In this document: positions 19,887 through 30,900 of the stretch, piece after piece
Layout: every line of letters begins with the position of its first letter
Position numbering within the stretch: the first letter of the stretch is position 1
NCBI GenBank assembly: GCA_965368975.1
Contig: CBDUPA010000034.1
Span: 1 to 33,958 of the forward strand
From: an uncultured bacterium
GTDB lineage: Bacteria; Acidobacteriota; Thermoanaerobaculia; Multivoradales; JAHZIX01
Direction of reading: 5' to 3'
DNA: 33,958 nucleotides
The notes under the pieces: generated by a model
Database searches by the model: none
Seen by the model: the letters and a program-made list of their open reading frames with translations, nothing else
What the model was told of the DNA's origin: nothing
Position numbers and translations under genes: made by a program

Positions 19887-22800
19887 TCAACTACTGGCCC
19901 GCGCCGCTTCCAGCTTCGCCAACCGCTCCCGCGCCTTGACGACCGCCTGATCGTCTTTCCCCCGCCCCTGACGCGCGTTCTCGAGCGCGTCCAACAGCAC
20001 CTTCTCGGCCCGCGCGAACTCCCCTCGCTGGATCAGCGCTTCGCCCAGCAGTCCCATCGATGCCACCACGTGCGAAGAATTCGGTGGAATCTGGTTGCGG
20101 GCGAAGGTAGCTAGCGCTTGCTCGAGTTGATCTTGCGCTTCGGCGGCCTTGCCCTGCTCCAACAAGGCGTGTGCCAGGTTCTTGCGCACGACGCCCAGGT
20201 TTGCGTGATCCTCGGGTAACGTTTGCGTGAAAGCCTCCAGAGCTTGGCGGAAATTGGACTCTGCACCGGCAGCGTCGCCCAGGAAATTCAGGGTGACGGC
20301 CAGGTTGTGGCTGACCGTCGCGACACGGGTGTTGTTGGGGCCTAGTAAGTCCCGCAGGATGACCAGTGCCTGCTCGTAACCCTCTTGAGCTGCTTCCAAG
20401 TCGCCGCTCTGCCGATGGACGAAAGCCAGATTGCTGAGCACGGTGGCTACCTGGAGGTGCTGCTCGCCGAAGGAGGCGCGATAGACACGGAGGGCCTCGG
20501 TGAACTGGGCTTCGGCACCTTCTAGATCGTCTTGGGCCTGTAGTGCCTGTGCCAGCGTGTTGCGGGCGGCGGCGACGCGCACGTAGTCGTCGCCCAAGAG
20601 ATCGCTCCACATTTCCAGCGCTTGTCTGGCCAGGTCTTCGGCGTCTTCGAGTTCACCTTGCTGGTGGCGCACCATGGCCAGGAGGTTCAGCGAGTCGGCG
20701 ACGTTGGGGTGCTGCTCGCCGAATAGCTCTCGCCGGTTGTTCAGGGCTTGTCGGGCGAGTTCCTCGGCCTCCTGAGAAGCGCCTTGGGCGTAGGCGAGGG
20801 CAGCCAAATTGTGGCGTACGGTGGCCAGATCCGGGTGTTCGGTCTCATAGACGTCGGCTTGAATGTCCAGGGCCTCGGTGAATACCTCCCTTGCCTGCTC
20901 CAGGTTCCCTTGCTCATCATGGAGCAAGCCCAGGTCGTTGAGCACGACGGCGACCTTGGGATGCCGGTCACCGAAGAGGTTTCGATAGAGATCCAGGCTT
21001 TGTGCGTAGGCATCCGAGGCTTCGTCGTGCTTGCCCTGGGCACGCAGCAGGCCACCTAGCTCGGCATAGCCTCCGGCAATCAGATGGTGGCGTTCACCGA
21101 GCACCTCGCCGGCCAGTTGCAGGCTCTGGTACCAGTACTCTTCGGCCATCGCGAACTTGCCCAGCCGGTGATGGGCTCGGGCCAGGCGCGAGAGGGCACG
21201 CACGCCTGTCTCAGTGTCGATCTTGCCGGTGTTGCGCAGCATGACCCAGGCAGCGCGGAAGTTCTCGAGAGCCTTGGCATACTCGCCGTCCAGAATTGCG
21301 TGGTCTCCAAGATCCAGCAGACTCTGCGCGATCTCGGGATGCGAAGCCCCATGCAACTGGCGGCGTACCACCAGCGCTTCTCGGATCAGTGGCTCGGCTT
21401 CGGCGAGCAGGCCCAGTCGCAGGTAGACGCGGCCCATGGTCGCGAGTAGCCGGGCTTGCAGCCGGGGTTGATCTCCCAGCCGGCTGCGGATGTCCAGAGC
21501 ACCGCGGTCGAGCAGCTCGCGAGCGGTCACGCGCTCGCCAAAGGTGCGGTCCGGGTCCGAAGTTTCGAACAGGCCCTCGAGAAAGTGGGTGACTTCTTCG
21601 CCGTGCTCTTGCTCCTGCAGGATCGTCGCACGCTGGACCAGCAAGGCGATAGTGAAGGCGGAGAAGGCAAGAAACGCCGCGACTGCCAGCGCCACCGGCC
21701 AACGATGTCGTCGGACGAACTTGCCGGAGCGGTACCAAAAGGTCTGGTGACGGGCGTTGACCGGGCGACCCAGCAGATAGCGATGAACGTCGGCGGAAAG
21801 CTCCTGGGCCGAGAGGTAGCGGTCGCGCGGATCCTTGCGCAGTGCCTTGGCGACGATGTCGTCCAGGTCCTTGCGCAGGTAGCGCTCCAGCTGGAGCACG
21901 TCGAGGCCCCGCTGTGCGGCGACGCCGCGAGCCCACTCTGCGGAGTGTGAACTCTCGCGTGCTCGCCTCAAGGCGCGTGAAGGAACCTCGGGAGTCTCGA
22001 AGCAGACAGCCTGGATGAAGGCGTGAGGCGAGGTCTCCGAGAGCTGAAAGGGGCGTCGGCCGGCGAGCAGAAGATAGAGCAGGGTACCGAGTGCGTAGAT
22101 GTCGCAGGCGGTTGTGATCGCCTGTCCTTGCATCTGTTCTGGGCTGGCGAATTCGGGGGTCATTGGCGCCATCGCGGTACCCGTGAGCATCTCCTTGTAG
22201 TCGCTGTCGAGTGAGCCCAGCAGCTTGGCGATGCCGAAGTCCAGCAGCTTGAGCTGGCCATCGGCCGTGACCAGAATGTTCGCTGGCTTCAGGTCGCGGT
22301 GGACGACCAGGTTCTGATGCGCGAAGTGGACGACGCTGCACACTTGGCGAAAGAGTTCCAGGCGCTGCCGTAGCGATAGGCGGCGTTGGTCACAGTAGCG
22401 GTCGATCGGTTCGCCCTCGACGTACTCGAGTACCAGGTACTGCTGGCGGTCATCGCTGAGCCCGCCGTCCAGCAGACGCGCGATCGACGGATGCTCGAGG
22501 TCCGCCAGGATCTGGCGCTCACGGCGGAAGCGCTGTTCGACTTCGGGTCGCGTCAGCTCCGGGTGTAGGATCTTGATCGCGACCTGGGTGCTGTAAGCAC
22601 CGTCGACCCGTTCCGCGCGATACACGGTACCCATGCCGCCGCGTCCGAGCACCTCGCGCACCTCGTAAGGACCGATTCTGGAATCCGTGGCCGACTCGGT
22701 TGCCGAGAGGCTCAGCACGGGACCGTCCAGGAAAGTACTGGGGTCGGCGTGTTGTTCGAGGAGTTCGCGCACCTCCTCGAGGACAGCCTGATCCGCCTGG

Positions 22801-22901
22801 CTGGATGCAAGGAACGCGGCTTGGGCTTCCGGCTCGAGTTCCAGAGCTTGGTGGAAGAGGTGGCGGGCCTCCTGCCACTGTTCGGCGTCTAACTTGGGCA
22901 T
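19887..22901 (-). CDS. Hanks-type membrane Ser/Thr protein kinase with a C-terminal TPR array
   Basis: GRGGMGTVY, VAIK, HRDLKPANIL, DFGIAK, ASPEQ. TM helix WPVALAVAAFLAFSAFTIALLV, then many 'HP.VA..LN.L' 42-aa TPRs. The N-terminal 'QWQEARHLFHQALELEP...AFL' helix typical of ECF-linked kinases sets the start at ATG 22901. Confidence 0.95.
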   Translation of the reverse strand: MPKLDAEQWQEARHLFHQALELEPEAQAAFLASSQADQAVLEEVRELLEQHADPSTFLDGPVLSLSATESATDSRIGPYEVREVLGRGGMGTVYRAERVDGAYSTQVAIKILHPELTRPEVEQRFRRERQILADLEHPSIARLLDGGLSDDRQQYLVLEYVEGEPIDRYCDQRRLSLRQRLELFRQVCSVVHFAHQNLVVHRDLKPANILVTADGQLKLLDFGIAKLLGSLDSDYKEMLTGTAMAPMTPEFASPEQMQGQAITTACDIYALGTLLYLLLAGRRPFQLSETSPHAFIQAVCFETPEVPSRALRRARESSHSAEWARGVAAQRGLDVLQLERYLRKDLDDIVAKALRKDPRDRYLSAQELSADVHRYLLGRPVNARHQTFWYRSGKFVRRHRWPVALAVAAFLAFSAFTIALLVQRATILQEQEHGEEVTHFLEGLFETSDPDRTFGERVTARELLDRGALDIRSRLGDQPRLQARLLATMGRVYLRLGLLAEAEPLIREALVVRRQLHGASHPEIAQSLLDLGDHAILDGEYAKALENFRAAWVMLRNTGKIDTETGVRALSRLARAHHRLGKFAMAEEYWYQSLQLAGEVLGERHHLIAGGYAELGGLLRAQGKHDEASDAYAQSLDLYRNLFGDRHPKVAVVLNDLGLLHDEQGNLEQAREVFTEALDIQADVYETEHPDLATVRHNLAALAYAQGASQEAEELARQALNNRRELFGEQHPNVADSLNLLAMVRHQQGELEDAEDLARQALEMWSDLLGDDYVRVAAARNTLAQALQAQDDLEGAEAQFTEALRVYRASFGEQHLQVATVLSNLAFVHRQSGDLEAAQEGYEQALVILRDLLGPNNTRVATVSHNLAVTLNFLGDAAGAESNFRQALEAFTQTLPEDHANLGVVRKNLAHALLEQGKAAEAQDQLEQALATFARNQIPPNSSHVVASMGLLGEALIQRGEFARAEKVLLDALENARQGRGKDDQAVVKARERLAKLEAARASS

Positions 22902-22915
22902 TCTCTTGCCATCCT

Positions 22916-22947
22916 GTGATCCGATCGGTACGCGTCTTGCGCCAACC
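22916..22947 (+). promoter_or_regulatory. Putative ECF sigma promoter, copy 1 (GTGATCC-N16-GCGCCAACC)
   Basis: GTGATCC 22916-22922, 16-nt spacer, GCGCCAACC 22939-22947. Upstream of CDS 23071. Confidence 0.7.
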
Positions 22948-23070
22948 CTATCGCACAGCTGGGAACTGTGGCTGAGTTCGCGTTCCAAGGTCGATGTGAT
23001 GAGGAACCCAGCAGGGCACTCCGCGAGCGGTGTCCGGGTTCCGTCAGGTCTCGAAAGGAGCACCGATAGC

Positions 23071-24672
23071 ATGTGCAGCGCTACTCTACGAAGTTCTTCT
23101 CCTCACCTCCGTTTGATTGTACGGACCCTCGCGGGTCTCTTCCTGGCTTCAATGACGTCCACTGCCTCAGCACAGATCACCAAGGTGGTCGGGTGGGGGC
23201 AGACCGAGGTGACGATCACGGCGGCTGAGTTGGGACTCGATCATTTGATGCCACTGGCCCAGACAGTCTCGGTCGCCAGTTCGCACGGCTCGTTGCAACT
23301 CGACGGCACGGATCTGGTCTACGCGCCGTCTTCCCGCTTCTGGCAGATTGGTTTCGACACATTCCAGGTGTCCGTGGGTGGCAAGGCGCCCAGGGATGTC
23401 TTCCTGATCGCCAACTTGCGCGAAGAGCCTCTGGCCGGGGATGCCTTCCAGGGTTGTGTCTTGGGCGGAGACTGGACCTGGACAGGGGATCTCAGCGAGC
23501 TTCAGCTGCAGTCCTCGAGCGTGACCAACGACTGTTTTCTGAGAGTCCAAGCCGGCGGCACGGGTATCGGGGTTCGCACGCGCCCGCAAGCCCTGACCGG
23601 ACCGGGTGGTGGCAACACGTCCATCTCTCTGGATCCTGGAATCGGTGGTGGTACCGAACTCCCCTTCGGTCTACCCGACGGGATGGAGGTGCCTATTGTG
23701 GCTGGCGTGACGCAGGATGGCAGGGTGGTCTTCGAGTTGGTGCTGACCGGCTCACAGCTACTTGCCCGAGCCTACCGGGCTGATGGATCGGCTGTCACTT
23801 CGTCGCCTCTGGCGCTCAGTGATGAAGCTCAACACCTCGAGATGGACTGGTGGTTCGCCAGCGCATCGGGAGCCCGTGACGGCGGTGTGATGCTGTCGCG
23901 CAACGGTGTCTTCGAGACAGCCGTGACCGGTGTCGACAACTTCGGCCTGCTGGGGTTGCCATGGTCCTGGGAATTTGGGCTGCTGGGGCCGACCAACGGA
24001 GGCCAAGGAGTCTTGGCCTTGCTCGATCCCGAGGTTTGGGTCAGTCCACGGCAACCGATGTTCGAACCCATCTTTGCCGACAGCGCGGCGGGTTTCTCGC
24101 TGAGTCGCTGGAGCGATCTGATCAACCCGGACAAGATCATGGTTTCGACCAAGAATTCCACGCAAAACCCTCAGTTCCTGCTCGGTGTTTCCAATGCGCG
24201 GCAGGTTGCACTGGTCGACGATTCACCGGTGGCCGAACGTCACTTCCGTGCCCGCTTCTCGCTCGGTGTGGATCAAATGGCGCCGGGTACGGGCGTCATG
24301 ACGATCTTCGCGGCTCTAGGACAATCCAGGGAGAAGCCCGTGTTCAGTGTCCAGTTGCGATTCAACCAGAACCTGGGGGCCTACCAAGTGCGCACTCGGA
24401 CACGTCACGGAGCTGGCGAGGTCGTCTCGCCCTGGGCTAGCGCTCCGCCGGCCGTGGCTACCCTCGAGGTGTCCGTGCAGTGGTGGGCGGAGACACAGGC
24501 TGCGGCAGCTGATGGCGGTCTGCGCCTCGAGGTGGGAGGGGCCGAGCTCGTGGAGTTGGGGCAGCTCACGAGCACAACCCTCCGGGTCGAGGAGGCTTGG
24601 ATCGGCGCTGTGCTGATACCCAAGGGTTGGCAGGGTGAGCTGCTCTTCGACGATCTGTGCGCCTGGCGCTAG
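23071..24672 (+). CDS. Secreted hypothetical protein, paralog A (small cadherin-like segment plus two related beta-rich domains)
   Basis: AAGGAG RBS before ATG 23071. Signal peptide ending in ASA-Q. 'HGSL...LVYAP...FW.IGFDTF' is Big_9-like. Two internal 'WW....GA.DGG..L' units. Ends DDLCAWR. Confidence 0.8.
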   Translation: MCSATLRSSSPHLRLIVRTLAGLFLASMTSTASAQITKVVGWGQTEVTITAAELGLDHLMPLAQTVSVASSHGSLQLDGTDLVYAPSSRFWQIGFDTFQVSVGGKAPRDVFLIANLREEPLAGDAFQGCVLGGDWTWTGDLSELQLQSSSVTNDCFLRVQAGGTGIGVRTRPQALTGPGGGNTSISLDPGIGGGTELPFGLPDGMEVPIVAGVTQDGRVVFELVLTGSQLLARAYRADGSAVTSSPLALSDEAQHLEMDWWFASASGARDGGVMLSRNGVFETAVTGVDNFGLLGLPWSWEFGLLGPTNGGQGVLALLDPEVWVSPRQPMFEPIFADSAAGFSLSRWSDLINPDKIMVSTKNSTQNPQFLLGVSNARQVALVDDSPVAERHFRARFSLGVDQMAPGTGVMTIFAALGQSREKPVFSVQLRFNQNLGAYQVRTRTRHGAGEVVSPWASAPPAVATLEVSVQWWAETQAAAADGGLRLEVGGAELVELGQLTSTTLRVEEAWIGAVLIPKGWQGELLFDDLCAWR

Positions 24673-24680
24673 CCCTATGG

Positions 24681-25286
24681 ATGAGTACGTCCATGTTGAC
24701 TGATCTTCCACGCGACGAGGACGTTACCGGGCTCCTGCAGCTATGGAGCCGTGACGGTGACCGGCGGGCACTCGATCTCCTCATGCCACTGGTTTCGCAG
24801 GAGTTGCAACGGATGGCCCTGGGGTTCTTCCGCCACGAGCGACCCGATCACACGCTGCAGCCCACAGCGCTGGTCAACGAGGTGTACCTACGCCTCGTGG
24901 ACCGGCGCAGGGCGACTTGGCAGGATCGGGTTCACTTTCTGAGCTTTGCCGCCCGTACGATGAGGCGCGTGCTGGTCGACCACTCGCGCAAGCACAAGGC
25001 GCTCAAGCGCGGGGCAGGAGCACAGCAGGTGGCTCTGCCGGAAGGGGCCGTCGTCACCTGGCAGCGCGAAATCGACTACCTGGCTCTGGACGAGGCCTTG
25101 ACGTCCCTGGCGCAGCTCGATGCTCGTCAAGCCAGGATCGTCGAGTTGCACTACTTTGCGGGTCTCACCATCGAGGAGCTTGCGACTGTGATCGAAATCG
25201 GTACCGCAACGGTGAAGCGCGATCTAGCGATGGGCCGTGCTTGGTTGCGACGCGCACTCGAGCCGATACCGGACTCCGCCGGCTAG
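24681..25286 (+). CDS. ECF RNA polymerase sigma factor, TIGR02999/ECF43-like (copy 1)
   Basis: DVTGLLQLWS...ERPDHTLQPTALVNEVYLRL...WQDRVHF...MRRVLVDH.R...KRG...YFAGLT.EE.A...TATVKRD...RAWL. Start is ATG 24681 or 24693. Confidence 0.92.
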   Translation: MSTSMLTDLPRDEDVTGLLQLWSRDGDRRALDLLMPLVSQELQRMALGFFRHERPDHTLQPTALVNEVYLRLVDRRRATWQDRVHFLSFAARTMRRVLVDHSRKHKALKRGAGAQQVALPEGAVVTWQREIDYLALDEALTSLAQLDARQARIVELHYFAGLTIEELATVIEIGTATVKRDLAMGRAWLRRALEPIPDSAG

Positions 25287-25332
25287 ACCTCTGCGCTGCG
25301 CCCCGCAGCTGGCGGCTCTTTCTTCCGCTACC

Positions 25333-25364
25333 GTGATCCGGTTTTCATGCGTCTTGCGCCAACC
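25333..25364 (+). promoter_or_regulatory. Putative ECF sigma promoter, copy 2
   Basis: GTGATCC 25333-25339, 16-nt spacer, GCGCCAACC 25356-25364. Upstream of CDS 25480. Confidence 0.7.
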
Positions 25365-25479
25365 TCAACGCAGCGCCTTGAACTCGTAGAATCAAACAAG
25401 GTAGTTGCCATTGACATCCAGTCCCTGGGGGAGATGGCTTTCTCGGGGCTCACTTCATCTCGAAAGGAGAGCCTGAATC

Positions 25480-27000
25480 ATGCGCAGTACCCTGTTCTTC
25501 GAATCGCCCCCTCGTACCTCGGGCCTCGGACCATGGCTGATTGGGATGTGTCTCATTCTGCTACTGACTCCCATGACGATGGCTCAGACGGTCCAAGTCG
25601 TGCCCTGGGCGCAGCCGCTGATACTCATCTCGCTGAATCAGGAGAAGCTGGAGGCTGGAGTCGAAGCTGCCGCCTACCCCTTGACCTGGACCGATCCTCG
25701 GAGAGGTCAGTTGAAGCAAAGCGGGGGCGGTCTGGTCTACATGCCGGATGAGGAGTTCTGGGAGGTGGGCTTTGACAGCTTTCACCTTCGCGAGTCCAGT
25801 ACTTCCAAGCAGTACGAGACCGTCTTCCTGATCGCTGGTCTGCGAGAAGAGCCACAGGCCCTAGGCGCCTTGGAGGGCTGTGTGCTGCACCCGGATTGGT
25901 TCTTGCTGGGTGATGCGCAGGTGGTGCAGAGGCCCGTTGCCAAGAGTTCCACATGCCTGTTCGAAATGACGCTTGGTGCCGATGTGCCGACGACGCTGGT
26001 CGGTCCCAAGGCCCAGACCGGGCCGGGCGGCGGCAACACATCGATCTCACTGGATCCGGGGACTCATCGGTCGCCTGGCTCCTTCGAGCTCTTACCGGGG
26101 ATGGAGACTCCCGTGGTGGCTGCGATTACGTCCCAGGGAGAAACCGTCTTCGAGCTGGTCCTGCGGGAGGGACTGGAGTTGTTCGTACGCGCGTACCACA
26201 GTGACGGCACCGTCGTAATGTCGAAGCCAGTGCAGACAGCTCAGGTCCGTCAGGATCTCGAGCTGGAGTGGTGGTTCGCGAGCACTGAAGGAGCGAGCGA
26301 TGGTGGTCTGCTCCTGGTGCGCGACGGTGTGCTGGAGACCGCAGTCATCGGAATCGACAACTTCGGTTTGCTGGGTCGCGCCTGGAACTGGCACTTTGGC
26401 TTGCTGGCTCCGACCGTGGGAGCGAGCGGTACGCTCGCCTTGGAGCAACCGGAGGTCTGGACCAGTCCCCGTCAGCCGGTCTATCAGCCGCTGTTCGCCA
26501 ACGGCACCGACAACGTCTACAGCGCTCAGTCCGCGGCGCTGCGCGATGCCTCGCCCAGTGCGGAGCGTCACTACCGGGCCAGGTTCTTCGTTGGCTTCGA
26601 GGGTGTGCGAAGTGAAGCGGGAGGCGCCTGGACCCTGTTCCGAGCCGACGACCCGGGTCGCGGCCTGGTGCCGTTCGATGTGCAGGTTCGCAGCAGTCTG
26701 TTTCGAGGCCTCGAGGTTCGTGCCCGCGCTTGGAATGGCTCGATGATGGTCGAAACGCCGTGGGAGCCCCTGCCCGAGGGGCGGTCGAGTCACGACGTTG
26801 CCGTTCAATGGTGGGCGCAGTCGGACGCTCAGACGCCCAACGGCGGTCTGCGGTTGTGGGTCGAAGGCGCCCTGACCGGAGGCGTGTCGGGGCTGGCCAA
26901 TGCCTCAGTGCGGGTCGAGGAGACCTATCTCGGTGTCTTGTCGGCCCCCCTGGGCGGTGGAGGAGAGCTGGTCATTCACGACTTCTTCGCTTGGCGCTAG
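25480..27000 (+). CDS. Secreted hypothetical protein, paralog B
   Basis: GAAAGGAG RBS and a signal peptide ending in TMA-Q. Shares with paralog A the blocks VFLIA.LREEP, TGPGGGNTSISLDPG, DNFGLLG..W.W.FGLL, PEVW.SPRQP, AERH.RARF and VQWWA, and the AWR C-terminus. Confidence 0.85.
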   Translation: MRSTLFFESPPRTSGLGPWLIGMCLILLLTPMTMAQTVQVVPWAQPLILISLNQEKLEAGVEAAAYPLTWTDPRRGQLKQSGGGLVYMPDEEFWEVGFDSFHLRESSTSKQYETVFLIAGLREEPQALGALEGCVLHPDWFLLGDAQVVQRPVAKSSTCLFEMTLGADVPTTLVGPKAQTGPGGGNTSISLDPGTHRSPGSFELLPGMETPVVAAITSQGETVFELVLREGLELFVRAYHSDGTVVMSKPVQTAQVRQDLELEWWFASTEGASDGGLLLVRDGVLETAVIGIDNFGLLGRAWNWHFGLLAPTVGASGTLALEQPEVWTSPRQPVYQPLFANGTDNVYSAQSAALRDASPSAERHYRARFFVGFEGVRSEAGGAWTLFRADDPGRGLVPFDVQVRSSLFRGLEVRARAWNGSMMVETPWEPLPEGRSSHDVAVQWWAQSDAQTPNGGLRLWVEGALTGGVSGLANASVRVEETYLGVLSAPLGGGGELVIHDFFAWR

Positions 27001-27014
27001 CGGTTTCGAATAGC

Positions 27015-27617
27015 ATGGTGACCATGGGAGAACGCTCGCAAGGGCACGACATCACAGCGCTGCTGCAGCAGTGGAGCCGTGGCGGAAACCGGGAGTCACT
27101 CGACCTCTTGATACCTCTCGTCTCTCGGGAGCTGCACCGCATTGCCCGCGGCTTCCTGGGTAACGAACGCGCGGACCACACGCTGCAGCCGACAGCGTTG
27201 GTCAACGAGGTCTACATGCGCCTGGTCGACCGACGCAAGGCGACGTGGCAGGATCGCGTCCATTTCCTGAGCTTCGCGGCGCGCACCATGCGCCGGATTC
27301 TGGTCGATCACTCGCGCAAGCAGAAAGCGCAGAAGCGAGGGGCAGGTGCCCAGCAAGTGACCCTGGATGAGTCCTCGGCTTTCGAACTGCAGCGAGGGGT
27401 CGACTACCTGGCCCTGGATGAAGCGTTGTCGGGCCTGGCGGAGATCGACTCTCGCCAGGCCCGCATCATCGAGCTGCGGTACTTCGCGGGTCTGACCATC
27501 GAGGAGATCGCGGCCGTGGTCGAGGTCGGCACCGCGACCGTCAAGCGGGACTTGGCCATGGCCCGGGCCTGGTTGCGGCGCGAGCTGGAGCCCGATCCCA
27601 CGGCCGCTTCCAGCTAA
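27015..27617 (+). CDS. ECF RNA polymerase sigma factor, TIGR02999/ECF43-like (copy 2)
   Basis: Same motifs as copy 1, about 75% identical over the core by manual alignment. Start is ATG 27015 or 27024. Confidence 0.92.
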   Translation: MVTMGERSQGHDITALLQQWSRGGNRESLDLLIPLVSRELHRIARGFLGNERADHTLQPTALVNEVYMRLVDRRKATWQDRVHFLSFAARTMRRILVDHSRKQKAQKRGAGAQQVTLDESSAFELQRGVDYLALDEALSGLAEIDSRQARIIELRYFAGLTIEEIAAVVEVGTATVKRDLAMARAWLRRELEPDPTAASS

Positions 27618-27629
27618 AGTCGTCTTCGG

Positions 27630-27661
27630 TTGAGCCGTTTTTTTCGGCGTTTGCGCCAACC
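27630..27661 (+). promoter_or_regulatory. Putative ECF sigma promoter, copy 3 (TTGAGCC variant)
   Basis: TTGAGCC 27630-27636, 16-nt spacer, GCGCCAACC 27653-27661. Followed by a short terminator-bounded non-coding stretch. Confidence 0.65.
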
Positions 27662-27665
27662 TGGG

Positions 27666-27791
27666 CAGACGTACGTTTCACAGACTTGCGTACGTTCACA
27701 GACCCGTAGAGACAGCGGTGGCATGCACGACCGCCGCGATCTCTCCTTTCGTGGCGCTGGCCCAGTACCCAACGGGCCGCGCCCTTTTTTT
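27666..27791 (+). ncRNA. Candidate ECF-dependent small RNA (~125 nt) with an anti-Shine-Dalgarno linker
   Basis: Bounded by promoter copy 3 and an intrinsic terminator. Contains the direct repeat CGTACGTT(T)CACAGAC x2, a hairpin at 27715-27737 and the linker CTCTCCTTTCG (27741-27751). The 5' end is estimated. Confidence 0.45.
27753..27791 (+). terminator. Rho-independent terminator
   Basis: Stem GGCGC(T)GGCCC / GGGCCGCGCC with a 10-nt loop, followed by T7 at 27785-27791. Confidence 0.8.
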
Positions 27792-27855
27792 GTTCGGCCT
27801 GTCGTTGCGCAACTCAGCGCGCGAGTAACTACGTGGAGCGAGTGGCGCGGCTACC

Positions 27856-27887
27856 GTGATCCCGTTTTCCCGCACCCTGCGCCAACC
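27856..27887 (+). promoter_or_regulatory. Putative ECF sigma promoter, copy 4
   Basis: GTGATCC 27856-27862, 16-nt spacer, GCGCCAACC 27879-27887. Lies after the terminator and 54 nt upstream of ATG 27942. Confidence 0.7.
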
Positions 27888-27941
27888 CTGCCAGAAGTCG
27901 ACCGCCTCCGGTCATGGATGAAACATGCAGGGAGCTCTACC

Positions 27942-30900
27942 ATGAGATGTCTTCGAGACCTGACGACCTGTCCTCTACTCACCAATCTACGATCGGCCAC
28001 GATGAGGTGCTTGCTGATTCTGGGGCTGCTCTTGCTGCCCTTGACGGCCACTGCTCAGAAGGAAACCGATCCCGGCAATGACGCTACCGTGGTCAGCCAC
28101 ACCTTGCCGACCCTGATGGAGTGTGGCTCCAAGCAGGTCGTTTCGGTGACGGTACAGAACACCGGTAAGTCCACCTGGAGTGGCAAGGCGGCCTACGGTC
28201 TCATGGGCGTGAACAATACGGCGTTCGAGGCTGAAGGCACGGCGCAAGGTGCGCAGCTGCCGGCCGACGTCGATGTCGCGCCCGGGCAGAGCTACACCTT
28301 CGAGCTCGACTTCGTCGTGCCTTCGGCGCCCGGCAACCACACTTCGCAATGGCAGATGACCCAGGGGGGGACAAGCCAGTTCGGCGGCATCGCGTCGGAG
28401 ACGACCAAGGTTGCCTGCCAGATCTCCGAGACCGATGCCGCTGAGGTGGTGAGCCATACGATTCCAGCCTTCATGGAGTGCGGCACCACCCAGGACGTCT
28501 CGATCACCTTCCAGAACACCGGTACGTCGACGTGGCGTCCGGAGCACCTGTATGTGCTGCGCTCGCCCGGCAATCAAGATCCGATGTCGAGCAAGACGGA
28601 GTGGTCGCTGCCCGCCGGGACCGCCGTGTCACCTGGGCAGAGCTACACCTTCCAGCTGCCACTGACCGCGCCGGCGGTGGCTGGCAGCTACAGCACGGAC
28701 TGGAAGATGTTGCACAAGCGGCTGCGCTGGTTCGGGGAAACCGCGCTCAGCACGGTGAACGTGTTGTGTGTCGGTGGTGAGGTGCCGGACGCGGCGGTGG
28801 TCGTCGTCGATCCGCCCAACAACTACGGCACCTGGGTCAAGGAGGAATGCGGCACCGAAACGTCGATCTTCGTGACCCTGCAGAATACGGGCAAGGCCCT
28901 ATGGGGCGCCGACACCTTCCTGGCCGCCACCGGCGGCTCGGATCCCTACCGCACCGACGCCGATCCGCGCGTGCCGTTGCCGCACAGCGTGTTCCCGGGC
29001 GAAACCGTGACCGTCGAGGTACCGCTCAGCATGCCGCCGGACGTCCAGGTCGCGCAGACCAGCGAGTGGCAGCTGGTGCGAGGCGCCAGCGAGTGGTTCG
29101 GTGAGATCGCCACCAAGCAGCTACTCGTGCGCTGCCAGCTCAACGAGAGCGACGATGCGCGCGTGGTATCGCATACCTTCCCCGACCTGATGGAGTGCGG
29201 CAGCACGCAGCGGATCAGCGTGACCATGGAGAACACCGGTACCAGCCGCTGGCGCAAGGATCTGAAGATGCGCTTGGGGGACCCGGGCAACAAGGATCCC
29301 TTCAAGGTGACGCATCGGGTCGACCTTCCCGCCGGTCTCGAGATTGGACCGGGCGGCGCGCACACCTTCGAGTTCGACATCAAGGCACCCGATGCAGCGG
29401 GCACCTACACCACCGATTGGCGCATGGTCCACGAGTGGGTGCGCTGGTTTGGTGAGACCGCGGCCAAGCAGATCGACGTGACGTGCAGCGACTACGGCGT
29501 CGAGTTCCTGCAACCACGCGCGCAAGTGCTCGCGGACGGCGGGAAATTCGACTGGGGCGTTCTGCACGAGGGCGAGGCACCCCGGCCCTTCACCTTCCGC
29601 GTCGCCGCGCCCGACAACTTCAAGGGCGAGCTCTACAACCTGCGTGTGGTCAGCGAGGAAGGGCCGGTGGCGGTCTACTTCGGCCAGCTGAGCAGCGGCA
29701 GTGGCAGCCTGCAGACCGGCGCCGAGGTGCCGGCTGAGCAGGGTCTGGATATCGGCGGCACGCTAGCGGTGAAGCCGGAGATCAAGGAGCTCAAGGCCGG
29801 CGAGCAAGTGGCCTTCCGGGCGGTGATCGCCTTTGATCACAGCCTCGGAGAGTCCTTCGAGTTCGAGATCGTTGGCCTGGCGCAGAAGGCCAGCTGCAAC
29901 GGCACGGACAGCTGGAGCTTCGTGTTCGAGGACTATCCGGGACCGTTCAACGAGGTGATTCCCGAGGAGCAGTTGCCGCGGCAGCTCGCCTACCGCGGTC
30001 GCATCACCAACAACGACGGCGCCCAGTGCCTGGAGATTCCGGAGAGCGGCATCAATGTCACCGTGGTCCAGCGACCCTTCGGCGTCAATACCGACCTGGA
30101 GGTGTTCGGCGGTCCGACCATCGTGCTGCAGCCGGGTGAGAGCTATGTCTTCCGGGTCCTGATCAACGCCACCGTGTCCGCCGAGAGTGGTGAGTACTCG
30201 GCCAACATCGGCGTCAGTCCATCGGGCACCTCGGTGGTCGACACACTCAACATCTCGGGTACCTTCGAGATCCAGGGGCCGGACCTGTCACTCGACAACG
30301 TCAGTGTTCGTTTGCTGTCCTCCGGTATCTCGGTAGGGCATTTCGGTATCTTCACGATCGATCCCGTAGACGCCTCGACCAACATCGATTTCGAGGTGCG
30401 CAACGACAATCCGGACGACATGCACGTCGAGGCCATGTCGGCCAGCATCTCCGGCCCAGCCGCCAGTGGTTTGAGCTACAACCCGACGCCAGTCTCGGCG
30501 GTGGTCCCGGCAGGGTTCCCGTCGGTGTTCGGCGGCCAGCTCCAGGTACTGAGTAGCGCGGTGCCCGGCGATTTCACGATTCACGTCAACTTCCGCGTCA
30601 CCGATGGTGACTTTACACCGGAGTTCGACGAGCTCTTCTCCTTCGACATCCAGGGCACCTTGACTGCCTGCGGTGGCGGAGGCAACTGTGGTCCCATCGT
30701 CAGTGTCGAGGACCAGAACGGCAACAGCGTGCGTGGTACCCACCGCCTCAACCTGGCCAACGAGGGTACCCACGATCTGGTGTTCAAGATCTTCAACATC
30801 GGGGACGAAGAGCTGAGCGTCAACCCGGCGTTGCAGCTGTCCGGCGACGGGCGCTTCAGCGTCCAGTCGTCACCGTCACCAACGACCGTCCCGCCGGATG

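Follow-up and report, generated by a model that had tools for sequence, protein, structure and literature searches.

Positions 27631-27791 of the stretch analysed here, a 33,958-nucleotide (nt) contig of an uncultured bacterium that we call the window, may form a small separate transcription unit encoding an Hfq-type small RNA (sRNA) that belongs to a regulon of extracytoplasmic function (ECF) sigma factors, with its target left open. Based on sequence and modelled folds, we favour this reading tentatively, at slightly less than even confidence. Together with a narrower version, in which the RNA closes a specific loop on two neighbouring operons, it makes the existence of a discrete ECF-dependent Hfq-type sRNA started from the promoter copy P3 somewhat probable. 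P3, a copy of the promoter presumably used by the local ECF sigma factors, would start the RNA at ~27667; from its 5' end, this RNA would fold into one hairpin, a brief unpaired spacer, another hairpin and then an unpaired U-rich linker, and a strong intrinsic terminator with U7 (27785-27791) would end it after ~125 nt. The same terminator probably ends the upstream operon of the gene for paralog B and the sigma factor gene ECF_B, in which case the RNA body would double as the 3' untranslated region (UTR) of that operon. The CU-rich linker could act as a seed against strong Shine-Dalgarno (SD) sites, with paralog B as the best local candidate, or as a plain Hfq U-rich site, with the repeated UUCACAGAC as the seed. 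We infer that P3 fires, that the RNA accumulates, and that it binds Hfq and acts by base-pairing, and we regard the predicted sRNA gene as credible but unverified. The elements of the putative unit and its immediate surroundings are as follows.

27600-27644, plus strand: weak hairpin and first T7 (27638-27644), overlapping the -35 box and spacer of P3
27631-27660, plus strand: P3 (promoter copy 3), -35-like TGAGCC, 15 nt, then TGCGCCAAC
27668-27696, plus strand: hairpin 1 (5'), formed by the CGTACG cores, each self-complementary, of the two copies of a tandem repeat
27697-27707, plus strand: single-stranded spacer, unpaired in the minimum-free-energy and centroid structures, with most of the second TTCACAGAC copy (27695-27703)
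27708-27744, plus strand: hairpin 2, in which pairing of AGAGA (27708-27712) with UCUCU (27740-27744) lengthens the inner GC stem (27715-27737)
27741-27751, plus strand: CTCTCCTTTCG, the proposed anti-SD seed, with 27741-27744 predicted paired and 27745-27751 open
27745-27752, plus strand: open U-rich linker CCUUUCGU, immediately 5' of the terminator hairpin
27753-27791, plus strand: strong intrinsic terminator, a GC-rich bulged hairpin (27753-27783) with T7 (27785-27791)
27857-27886, plus strand: P4 (promoter copy 4), TGATCC-N15-TGCGCCAAC, serving the giant gene that starts at ATG 27942

Promoter, fold and terminator

The window comprises the entire contig C34 of a 7.1-Mb genome (65% G+C, 59 contigs). 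Across this genome the motif TGAKCC-N15-TGCGCCAAC occurs eight times, with four copies inside the window (starts at 22917, 25334, 27631 and 27857) and four outside it: C24:1515 at a third paralog, C24:3387 and C17:137203 at two giant genes, and C21:93989, on the minus strand, at a locus of small peptides. Of the seven copies other than P3, three stand ahead of paralog genes, three ahead of giant genes and one ahead of a small-peptide gene, and the eight-copy motif defines a small putative regulon of three secreted paralogs without a known family, three giant immunoglobulin (Ig)-repeat proteins, the small-peptide locus and the sRNA candidate. A looser pattern, TGAKCC-N16-18-CGCCAAC, had 15 matches in the genome versus one for the reversed control, and contig C23 of the related genome G003 keeps TGATCC-N17-CGCCAAC ahead of the orthologous paralog-ECF operon.

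In silico, P3 is a member of this promoter set. Scored with a matrix from which it had been left out, it reached 25.0 bits over the 18 core columns, compared with 24.6-28.2 for the other seven copies of the genome and 18.1 for that of G003; among ~14 million positions, eight reach the core score of P3, a number equal to the motif copies of the genome. All core positions but one are retained. A CAG at 27666-27668, past P3, places the predicted transcription start at ~27667, and its distance from the -10-like box equals, by eye from the listings, that in most other copies. At the sequence level, P3 thereby puts a predicted cognate-ECF promoter directly upstream of the candidate, the feature by which an sRNA is assigned to such a regulon. 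A consensus promoter scan, which covers the sigma-70 type only, listed no promoter.

The RNA spanning 27665-27795 folds at -52.3 kcal/mol, compared with -38.1 +/- 3.6 kcal/mol for its shuffles (z -3.98), none of the 200 being as stable, and the P3-to-terminator RNA stripped of the terminator still has a z of -3.29. Directly past the predicted start lies the tandem repeat CGTACGTT(T)CACAGAC (27670-27703), with two copies 18-19 nt apart, CGTACGTT recurring at 27670 and 27689 and TTCACAGAC at 27677 and 27695; the first TTCACAGAC copy sits in the loop of hairpin 1. In the predicted RNA fold the repeat forms hairpin 1, but a protein-binding site in the DNA is an equally good reading.

The terminator hairpin folds at -20.9 kcal/mol (z -3.10), and none of 200 shuffles folds as well. 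Such structures are rare in this genome: 46 runs of at least seven T occur on both strands, 15 of them, including this one, with a strong adjacent hairpin, and canonical intrinsic terminators number 48 candidates in 7.1 Mb when runs of at least six T are counted. A separate consensus terminator scan missed the site, which we attribute to the loop and bulge limits of that scan. An earlier note on this DNA, hereafter the original prediction, had described promoter copy 3 followed by a strong intrinsic terminator, a hairpin at 27715-27737, and a giant gene with a promoter copy of its own past the terminator; all three descriptions hold, the hairpin as a predicted structure.

The region is also non-coding by composition, since G+C at third codon positions (GC3) in the frame running through it is 0.59, versus 0.80-0.87 in the flanking genes. 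No plus-strand open reading frame (ORF) with an SD and ending before the terminator was seen by eye. An upstream start of the giant gene was considered, as its frame is open back to 27630, yet GC3 ruled it out.

The minimal Hfq-binding module of Escherichia coli runs from a U-rich stretch inside the RNA through the terminator hairpin to a run of at least seven U, a length that sRNA terminators require for Hfq binding (PMC5558911). The candidate has the same layout, with CCUUUCGU at 27745-27752, a GC-rich hairpin at 27753-27783 and T7 at 27785-27791, corresponding to U7 in the RNA, and the genome carries an hfq gene (C3:387675; 63.2 bits, above the cut-off). Module rules defined in E. coli may not be those of this lineage. 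The layout and the presence of hfq together strengthen the sRNA reading and at the same time weaken the reading of the same bases as a seed.

A terminator between P3 and P4 could also belong to a leader or attenuator of the giant gene, with the two copies acting as tandem promoters and the terminator being read through conditionally. The two promoters lie on one strand and in one regulon, and 151 nt separate the terminator from the start of the giant gene, as such an arrangement would have it. We nevertheless consider it highly unlikely: none of the folds contains an alternative anti-terminator pairing, the terminator is strong, the other two motif-bearing giant genes are without such a unit, and no riboswitch or leader of Rfam was matched.

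Conservation and the operon-end alternative

Several observations weigh against the sRNA reading. Position 4 of the first box of P3 is a G, versus a T in the seven other copies and in G003, and when all 44 columns are used, the leave-one-out score of P3 drops to 18.0 bits, a value reached by 11 positions of the genome. The terminator alone is no proof of an sRNA, because it is needed anyway to end the upstream operon: the hairpin before the first T7 reaches -10.7 kcal/mol (z -1.0), a stability matched or exceeded by 36 of 200 shuffles, and no strong terminator was found between the ECF_B stop at 27617 and 27753. Stretch 27600-27644 may, as modelled, terminate the ECF_B operon incompletely; given its weakness, transcripts of operon B probably run to 27791, making the region also their 3' UTR.

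Conservation adds further points on the same side. A DNA search of 40 relatives returned no homologue, only the window itself, the P_B promoter upstream of paralog B and one 30-nt match (E 0.0087), and a single-sequence covariance model run over the 40 genomes gave chance-level matches only (best per-genome E 0.0127), two of which, when read, looked coding-like by eye. The homologue search proposed as a check in the original prediction thus came back empty by both methods. Rfam release 15 yielded 0 matches at E <= 1 over 22500-28500 on both strands. In G003:C23, what lies past the ECF gene is a convergent gene and no such sRNA unit, and at the paralogous C24 locus there is no ECF gene, nor does such a unit separate paralog C from its giant gene. 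As the relatives include no genome of the same genus, the missing conservation is weak evidence. G003:C23 carries the sole full-length relative of the paralogs outside the genome (36% identity). Metagenome scans with paralog B and with a four-sequence alignment found no closer relative, and the genome-contig scan gave the G003:C23 locus only.

We also considered the sRNA body as a duplicated 5' UTR of the paralogs and rejected the idea, since 727, 772 and 496 of 1000 mononucleotide shuffles reach the local alignment score observed with A, B and C, respectively. A MAFFT alignment of the body with the paralog 5' UTRs showed no similarity past the promoter.

These points bear on an alternative in which 27753-27791 does nothing but terminate the paralog B-ECF_B mRNA and insulate the giant gene, P3 having arisen through local promoter duplication and being weak or silent, with an incidental CU-rich tract. 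Operon transcripts should reach the second terminator, given a first-T7 hairpin no better than shuffles, and both the change at an otherwise invariant -35 position and the lack of conservation fit a promoter of this kind. The distance is not unusual for a 3' UTR either: 10 of the 47 strong terminator candidates with a supported upstream ORF stop lie 100-300 nt past that stop, compared with 168 nt here. (This count and the target rankings below use ORF sets from a crude caller based on ORF length and GC3, which includes false ORFs and missed ECF_B.) The 11-mer complementary to the tract has seven copies in the genome, versus ~2.7 expected by composition; five resemble a ribosome-binding site (RBS) and two, including the tract itself, lie at places that do not. 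Against this alternative, P3 reaches the full scores of a member with every other core position kept, its 14 specified bases would be expected by chance ~0.1 times per genome (an estimate from base composition), and the P3-to-terminator RNA is far more structured than its shuffles even without the terminator. On balance we judge an operon end and nothing else to be rather unlikely, and keep the separate sRNA unit as the preferred reading.

The CU-rich tract and its possible targets

The original prediction had assigned the candidate an exact, unpaired anti-SD seed directed at the two upstream operons. The sites concerned are:

23052-23060, plus strand: RBS of paralog A, CGAAAGGAG, 9/9 complementary to 27743-27751; start ATG 23071
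25461-25471, plus strand: RBS of paralog B, CGAAAGGAGAG, 11/11 complementary to 27741-27751; start ATG 25480

Both matches are present as described. Within the window CGAAAGGAG has exactly three sites, 23052-23060 and 25461-25469 on the plus strand and 27743-27751 on the minus strand, compared with 0.34 expected, and none of 100 shuffles reaches three. The claim of an unpaired linker at 27741-27751 stands for part of its length only. On folding, 27745-27752 is open (per-base probability of being unpaired 0.6-1.0, except for G27751 at 0.36-0.44), whereas U27740-U27744 pair with A27708-A27712 and have a probability of being unpaired of <=0.15 in all five transcript versions folded. The accessible part of the tract in these models is therefore 7 of its 11 bases and not the whole. 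In three RNAs started from P3, opening the 11 nt costs 7.4-8.0 kcal/mol, opening 9 nt costs 5.1-5.7 kcal/mol and opening the last 7 nt costs 0.9-1.5 kcal/mol.

Specificity for the two operons was not borne out. No 16S rRNA gene of the genome itself is assembled, and the 3' tail reads GGATCACCTCCTTTCT in all eight 16S loci of relatives that were read, two of them from the same family. CTCCTTTC, which makes up 8 of the 11 tract bases, is identical to this tail, and these bases therefore match any strong SD, which argues against specific pairing. GAAAGGAG, by its letters a perfect long SD, has 117 sites in the genome (52 RBS-like), CGAAAGGAG has 46 (20 RBS-like, three of which are the three paralogs) and the 11-mer has seven (five RBS-like). 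The original prediction, which itself cautioned that anti-SD sequences match many RBSs, overstated the case for an exact, unpaired, operon-specific seed.

In a duplex ranking of 8694 crude ORF starts with the 11-nt tract as the query, paralog B came 10th, C 164-180th and A 201-218th, and with the open 8 nt as the query the three tied at rank ~306-335. Duplex energies were -13.0 (A), -17.4 (B) and -13.2 kcal/mol (C), with target opening costs of 4.0, 6.0 and 8.7 kcal/mol; the net, an approximate sum of duplex, sRNA opening and target opening, was ~-3.5 kcal/mol for B, -3.5 for A and +0.9 for C. The cofold gain placed A at rank 160, B at rank 1082 and C at rank 4241 among 8481; we judge this measure uninformative in a GC-rich genome, its ranking being dominated by long GC-rich refoldings (top hit -26.1 kcal/mol, with 50 intermolecular pairs). 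The sRNA positions most often paired to a target in the top 200 cofolds included 27701-27707 and the linker 27745-27752. A preference of 3' regions for the RBS of their own operon was rejected, as the duplex matrix of 3' regions against RBS windows has no diagonal; CU-rich tracts also occur 3' of operon A and of paralog C.

At the RBS, CTCGAAAGGAG is identical in all three paralogs (window 23050-23060 and 25459-25471; locus L043 1654-1664), GAAAGGAGAGCC is common to paralog B and the RBS of its G003 homologue (L039 2025-2036) despite 36% protein identity, and the SD is unusually long and conserved. In C, in G003 and in one fold of B, it is predicted to pair locally, forming a hairpin with a CUUUC-type stretch that precedes it.

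In the narrower version of the sRNA reading, CUCUCCUUUCG in the P3 RNA would form 11 bp with the paralog B RBS and 9 bp with that of paralog A, and the RNA would block translation of paralog and ECF and so exert direct negative feedback on the sigma factors. The exact complements, the linkage of the candidate to the operons, the rank of B with the 11-nt tract, and the CTCGAAAGGAG core shared by the three RBSs with GAAAGGAGAGCC kept in G003 all speak for it. Translation of each paralog and its ECF gene could also be coupled, given that ECF_A and ECF_B start 20 and 14 nt past the respective paralog stops and that reading the sequence revealed no clear SD before either. On the other side stand the likeness of 8 of 11 nt to the 16S tail, the many RBS-like sites elsewhere, the low ranks of A and C, the tie of all three paralogs with the open bases, the costs of opening tract and targets, the cofold ranks and the lack of own-operon preference; moreover, the linker is the place where Hfq-type sRNAs bind Hfq. 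We therefore regard the specific loop as quite improbable. Of the original proposal that a sigma-activated sRNA closes a loop on the sigma operons, the half concerning an sRNA gene gains support from the P3 score, the fold, a terminator that is one of 15 of its kind and the presence of hfq, and the loop itself has none beyond proximity.

In a related proposal, the open linker of an Hfq-type sRNA would imitate the 16S 3' tail and, when the sigma factor is active, compete with ribosomes for unusually long SDs, including the CTCGAAAGGAG sites of the sigma operons. We rate this a shade less probable still.

The tract could also act without P3, within the operon mRNA, either by folding onto its own paralog B RBS or by being processed out as an sRNA. 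If the weak first T7 is read through, the tract and its 11/11 partner would share one transcript, and both routes have precedents, which are compared with the candidate below (PMC3868564 and PMC7398697). The problems of specificity and energy are those of the specific loop, the CU-rich 3' tracts of operon A and paralog C come without a preference for their own operon, and a full promoter copy would be left unexplained. This explanation seems very unlikely to us.

Finally, the GGAG-containing 11-mer might be a true RBS on the minus strand, serving a 36-codon ORF that runs, antisense to the sRNA candidate, from 27724 down to 27614 (MPPLSLRVCERTQVCETYVC...). The ORF exists and starts with ATG, and five of the seven genome copies of the 11-mer are RBS-like. 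However, 18 nt separate the ATG from the GGAG, the peptide shows the high Arg/Lys content that translation of an A-run would give, no promoter-like site (sigma-70 type scan only) or terminator was seen on that strand, and the ORF would run antisense into ECF_B. We give this possibility almost no weight.

With respect to seeds other than the tract in the sRNA, the repeated open TTCACAGAC motifs are plausible. The alternative seed GUUCACAGACCCGU was ranked against all crude starts and placed no regulon gene above rank 1846, and GTCTGTGAA has 19 sites in the genome versus 25 expected. One lead came from locus L056 (2476-2510, minus strand; contig C4, start codon C4:271974), the 5' UTR of a 365-amino-acid secreted protein without a Pfam family, which contains GUCUGUGAAC, a 10-nt complement of 27694-27703, and GAAAGGAGA, a 9-nt complement of the CU-rich tract; the two are not colinear for one duplex, and we note the site as a lead only.

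Gene neighbourhood and known sRNA systems

The candidate lies at the end of two similar operons that are preceded by a divergent kinase gene:

19887-22901, minus strand: Ser/Thr kinase with TPR (Pfam); start likely ATG 22901 (-), rather than 23072
22917-22946, plus strand: promoter copy P_A, divergent from the kinase
23071-24672, plus strand: paralog A, start ATG 23071
24693-25286, plus strand: ECF_A, from ATG 24693, downstream of paralog A
25334-25363, plus strand: promoter copy P_B
25480-27000, plus strand: paralog B, start ATG 25480
27015-27617, plus strand: ECF_B, final gene of the paralog B-ECF_B operon, stop TAA 27615-27617; its start, ATG 27015, is assigned from homology to ECF_A
From ATG 27942, plus strand: giant Ig-repeat protein gene, 151 nt past the terminator, with its own promoter P4

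ECF_A and ECF_B share 72% identity, and both match PF07638 and TIGR02999 (for ECF_B, 1e-52 in Pfam and 208.7 bits in NCBIfam, where the cut-off is 126). The paralogs matched no Pfam or NCBIfam family, and a search with paralog B in a protein atlas gave Ig/cadherin-like leads only. The kinase and the paralog-ECF operon stand in a tight divergent arrangement both here (22899-22946) and in G003 (L039 1880-1916): 15 nt separate the kinase ATG 22901 (-) from the first P_A box, and the kinase start codon of G003 overlaps the first promoter box.

Two further loci with promoter copies show features of their own. The copy on C21 drives two tandem paralogous small peptides of 67 and ~74-77 amino acids (L057 1193-1396 and 1659-1892, both on the minus strand), which both carry an LRKDTLL-type stretch near the N-terminus, end in an identical Cys-rich sequence (...TTISPDCVHNESVGCPTTFTPTW) and which we take to resemble precursor peptides of the ribosomally synthesized and post-translationally modified type. 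Both promoter copies on C24 are preceded by related hairpins, GGGCGCCGG...CCGGCGCC, two in number (L043 1397-1443 and 3337-3386), and a CU-rich tail follows each hairpin; elsewhere in the genome this pair of arms occurs in just one unrelated palindrome, on C19.

Feedback by sigma-dependent sRNAs is familiar from enterobacteria, where RybB feeds back indirectly on sigma E. MicL, MicA and RybB are sigma-E-dependent Hfq sRNAs, and MicL is transcribed from the end of another gene (PMC4102768); by analogy, the candidate would work most like MicL. Shared with these sRNAs are an ECF-type sigma promoter at the end of another gene, membership in the regulon and the part of a repressing arm that the candidate would play. 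Unlike in these systems, the sigma factor here is of the TIGR02999/PF07638 type and is encoded beside a Ser/Thr kinase, and there is no sequence or Rfam similarity; P3 lies past a stop codon, whereas the MicL promoter lies inside a coding sequence, and the target of the candidate is only proposed.

OppZ and CarZ of Vibrio cholerae are autoregulatory sRNAs that RNase E releases from 3' UTRs and that have no promoter of their own (PMC7398697). They share with the candidate an origin at an operon's 3' end and complementarity to a translation start of that operon, and the candidate would, like them, give post-transcriptional negative feedback; of the features typical of them, the terminator is probably shared with the upstream operon here, and the complement (11/11) to an RBS of that operon, that of paralog B, is present. 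The candidate differs in having its own promoter copy. In the icaR mRNA of Staphylococcus aureus, the anti-SD motif UCCCC in the 3' UTR pairs in cis with the SD of the same mRNA, with involvement of RNase III (PMC3868564). The candidate tract is likewise a pyrimidine-rich 3' UTR motif complementary to an SD of what is probably the same mRNA; in contrast to icaR, a cis-acting Gram-positive case, it is a U-rich CCUUUCG that lies ~2.3 kb from its putative partner. UdsC of Rhodobacter sphaeroides, a 3' UTR-derived sRNA, binds the 5' UTR of the rpoHII mRNA (PMC9779115) and so acts on the mRNA of an alternative sigma factor, as proposed here. RpoHII is not an ECF sigma factor, however, and UdsC is not encoded beside its target.

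Kinase-associated ECF groups are typically without anti-sigma factors (PMC7826278), and a keyword search of open-access text, supplements excluded, found no sRNA in a kinase-associated ECF regulon. The principles of a sigma-dependent sRNA as the repressing arm and of autoregulation from a 3' UTR are already established, so that the gain would be one of breadth, with no new mechanism. If the RNA is made, it would provide an sRNA arm in an ECF regulon of the TIGR02999/PF07638 type beside a Ser/Thr kinase, in an uncultured lineage; and if mimicry of the 16S tail were true, it would amount to direct post-transcriptional autoregulation of a phosphorylation-controlled ECF sigma factor.

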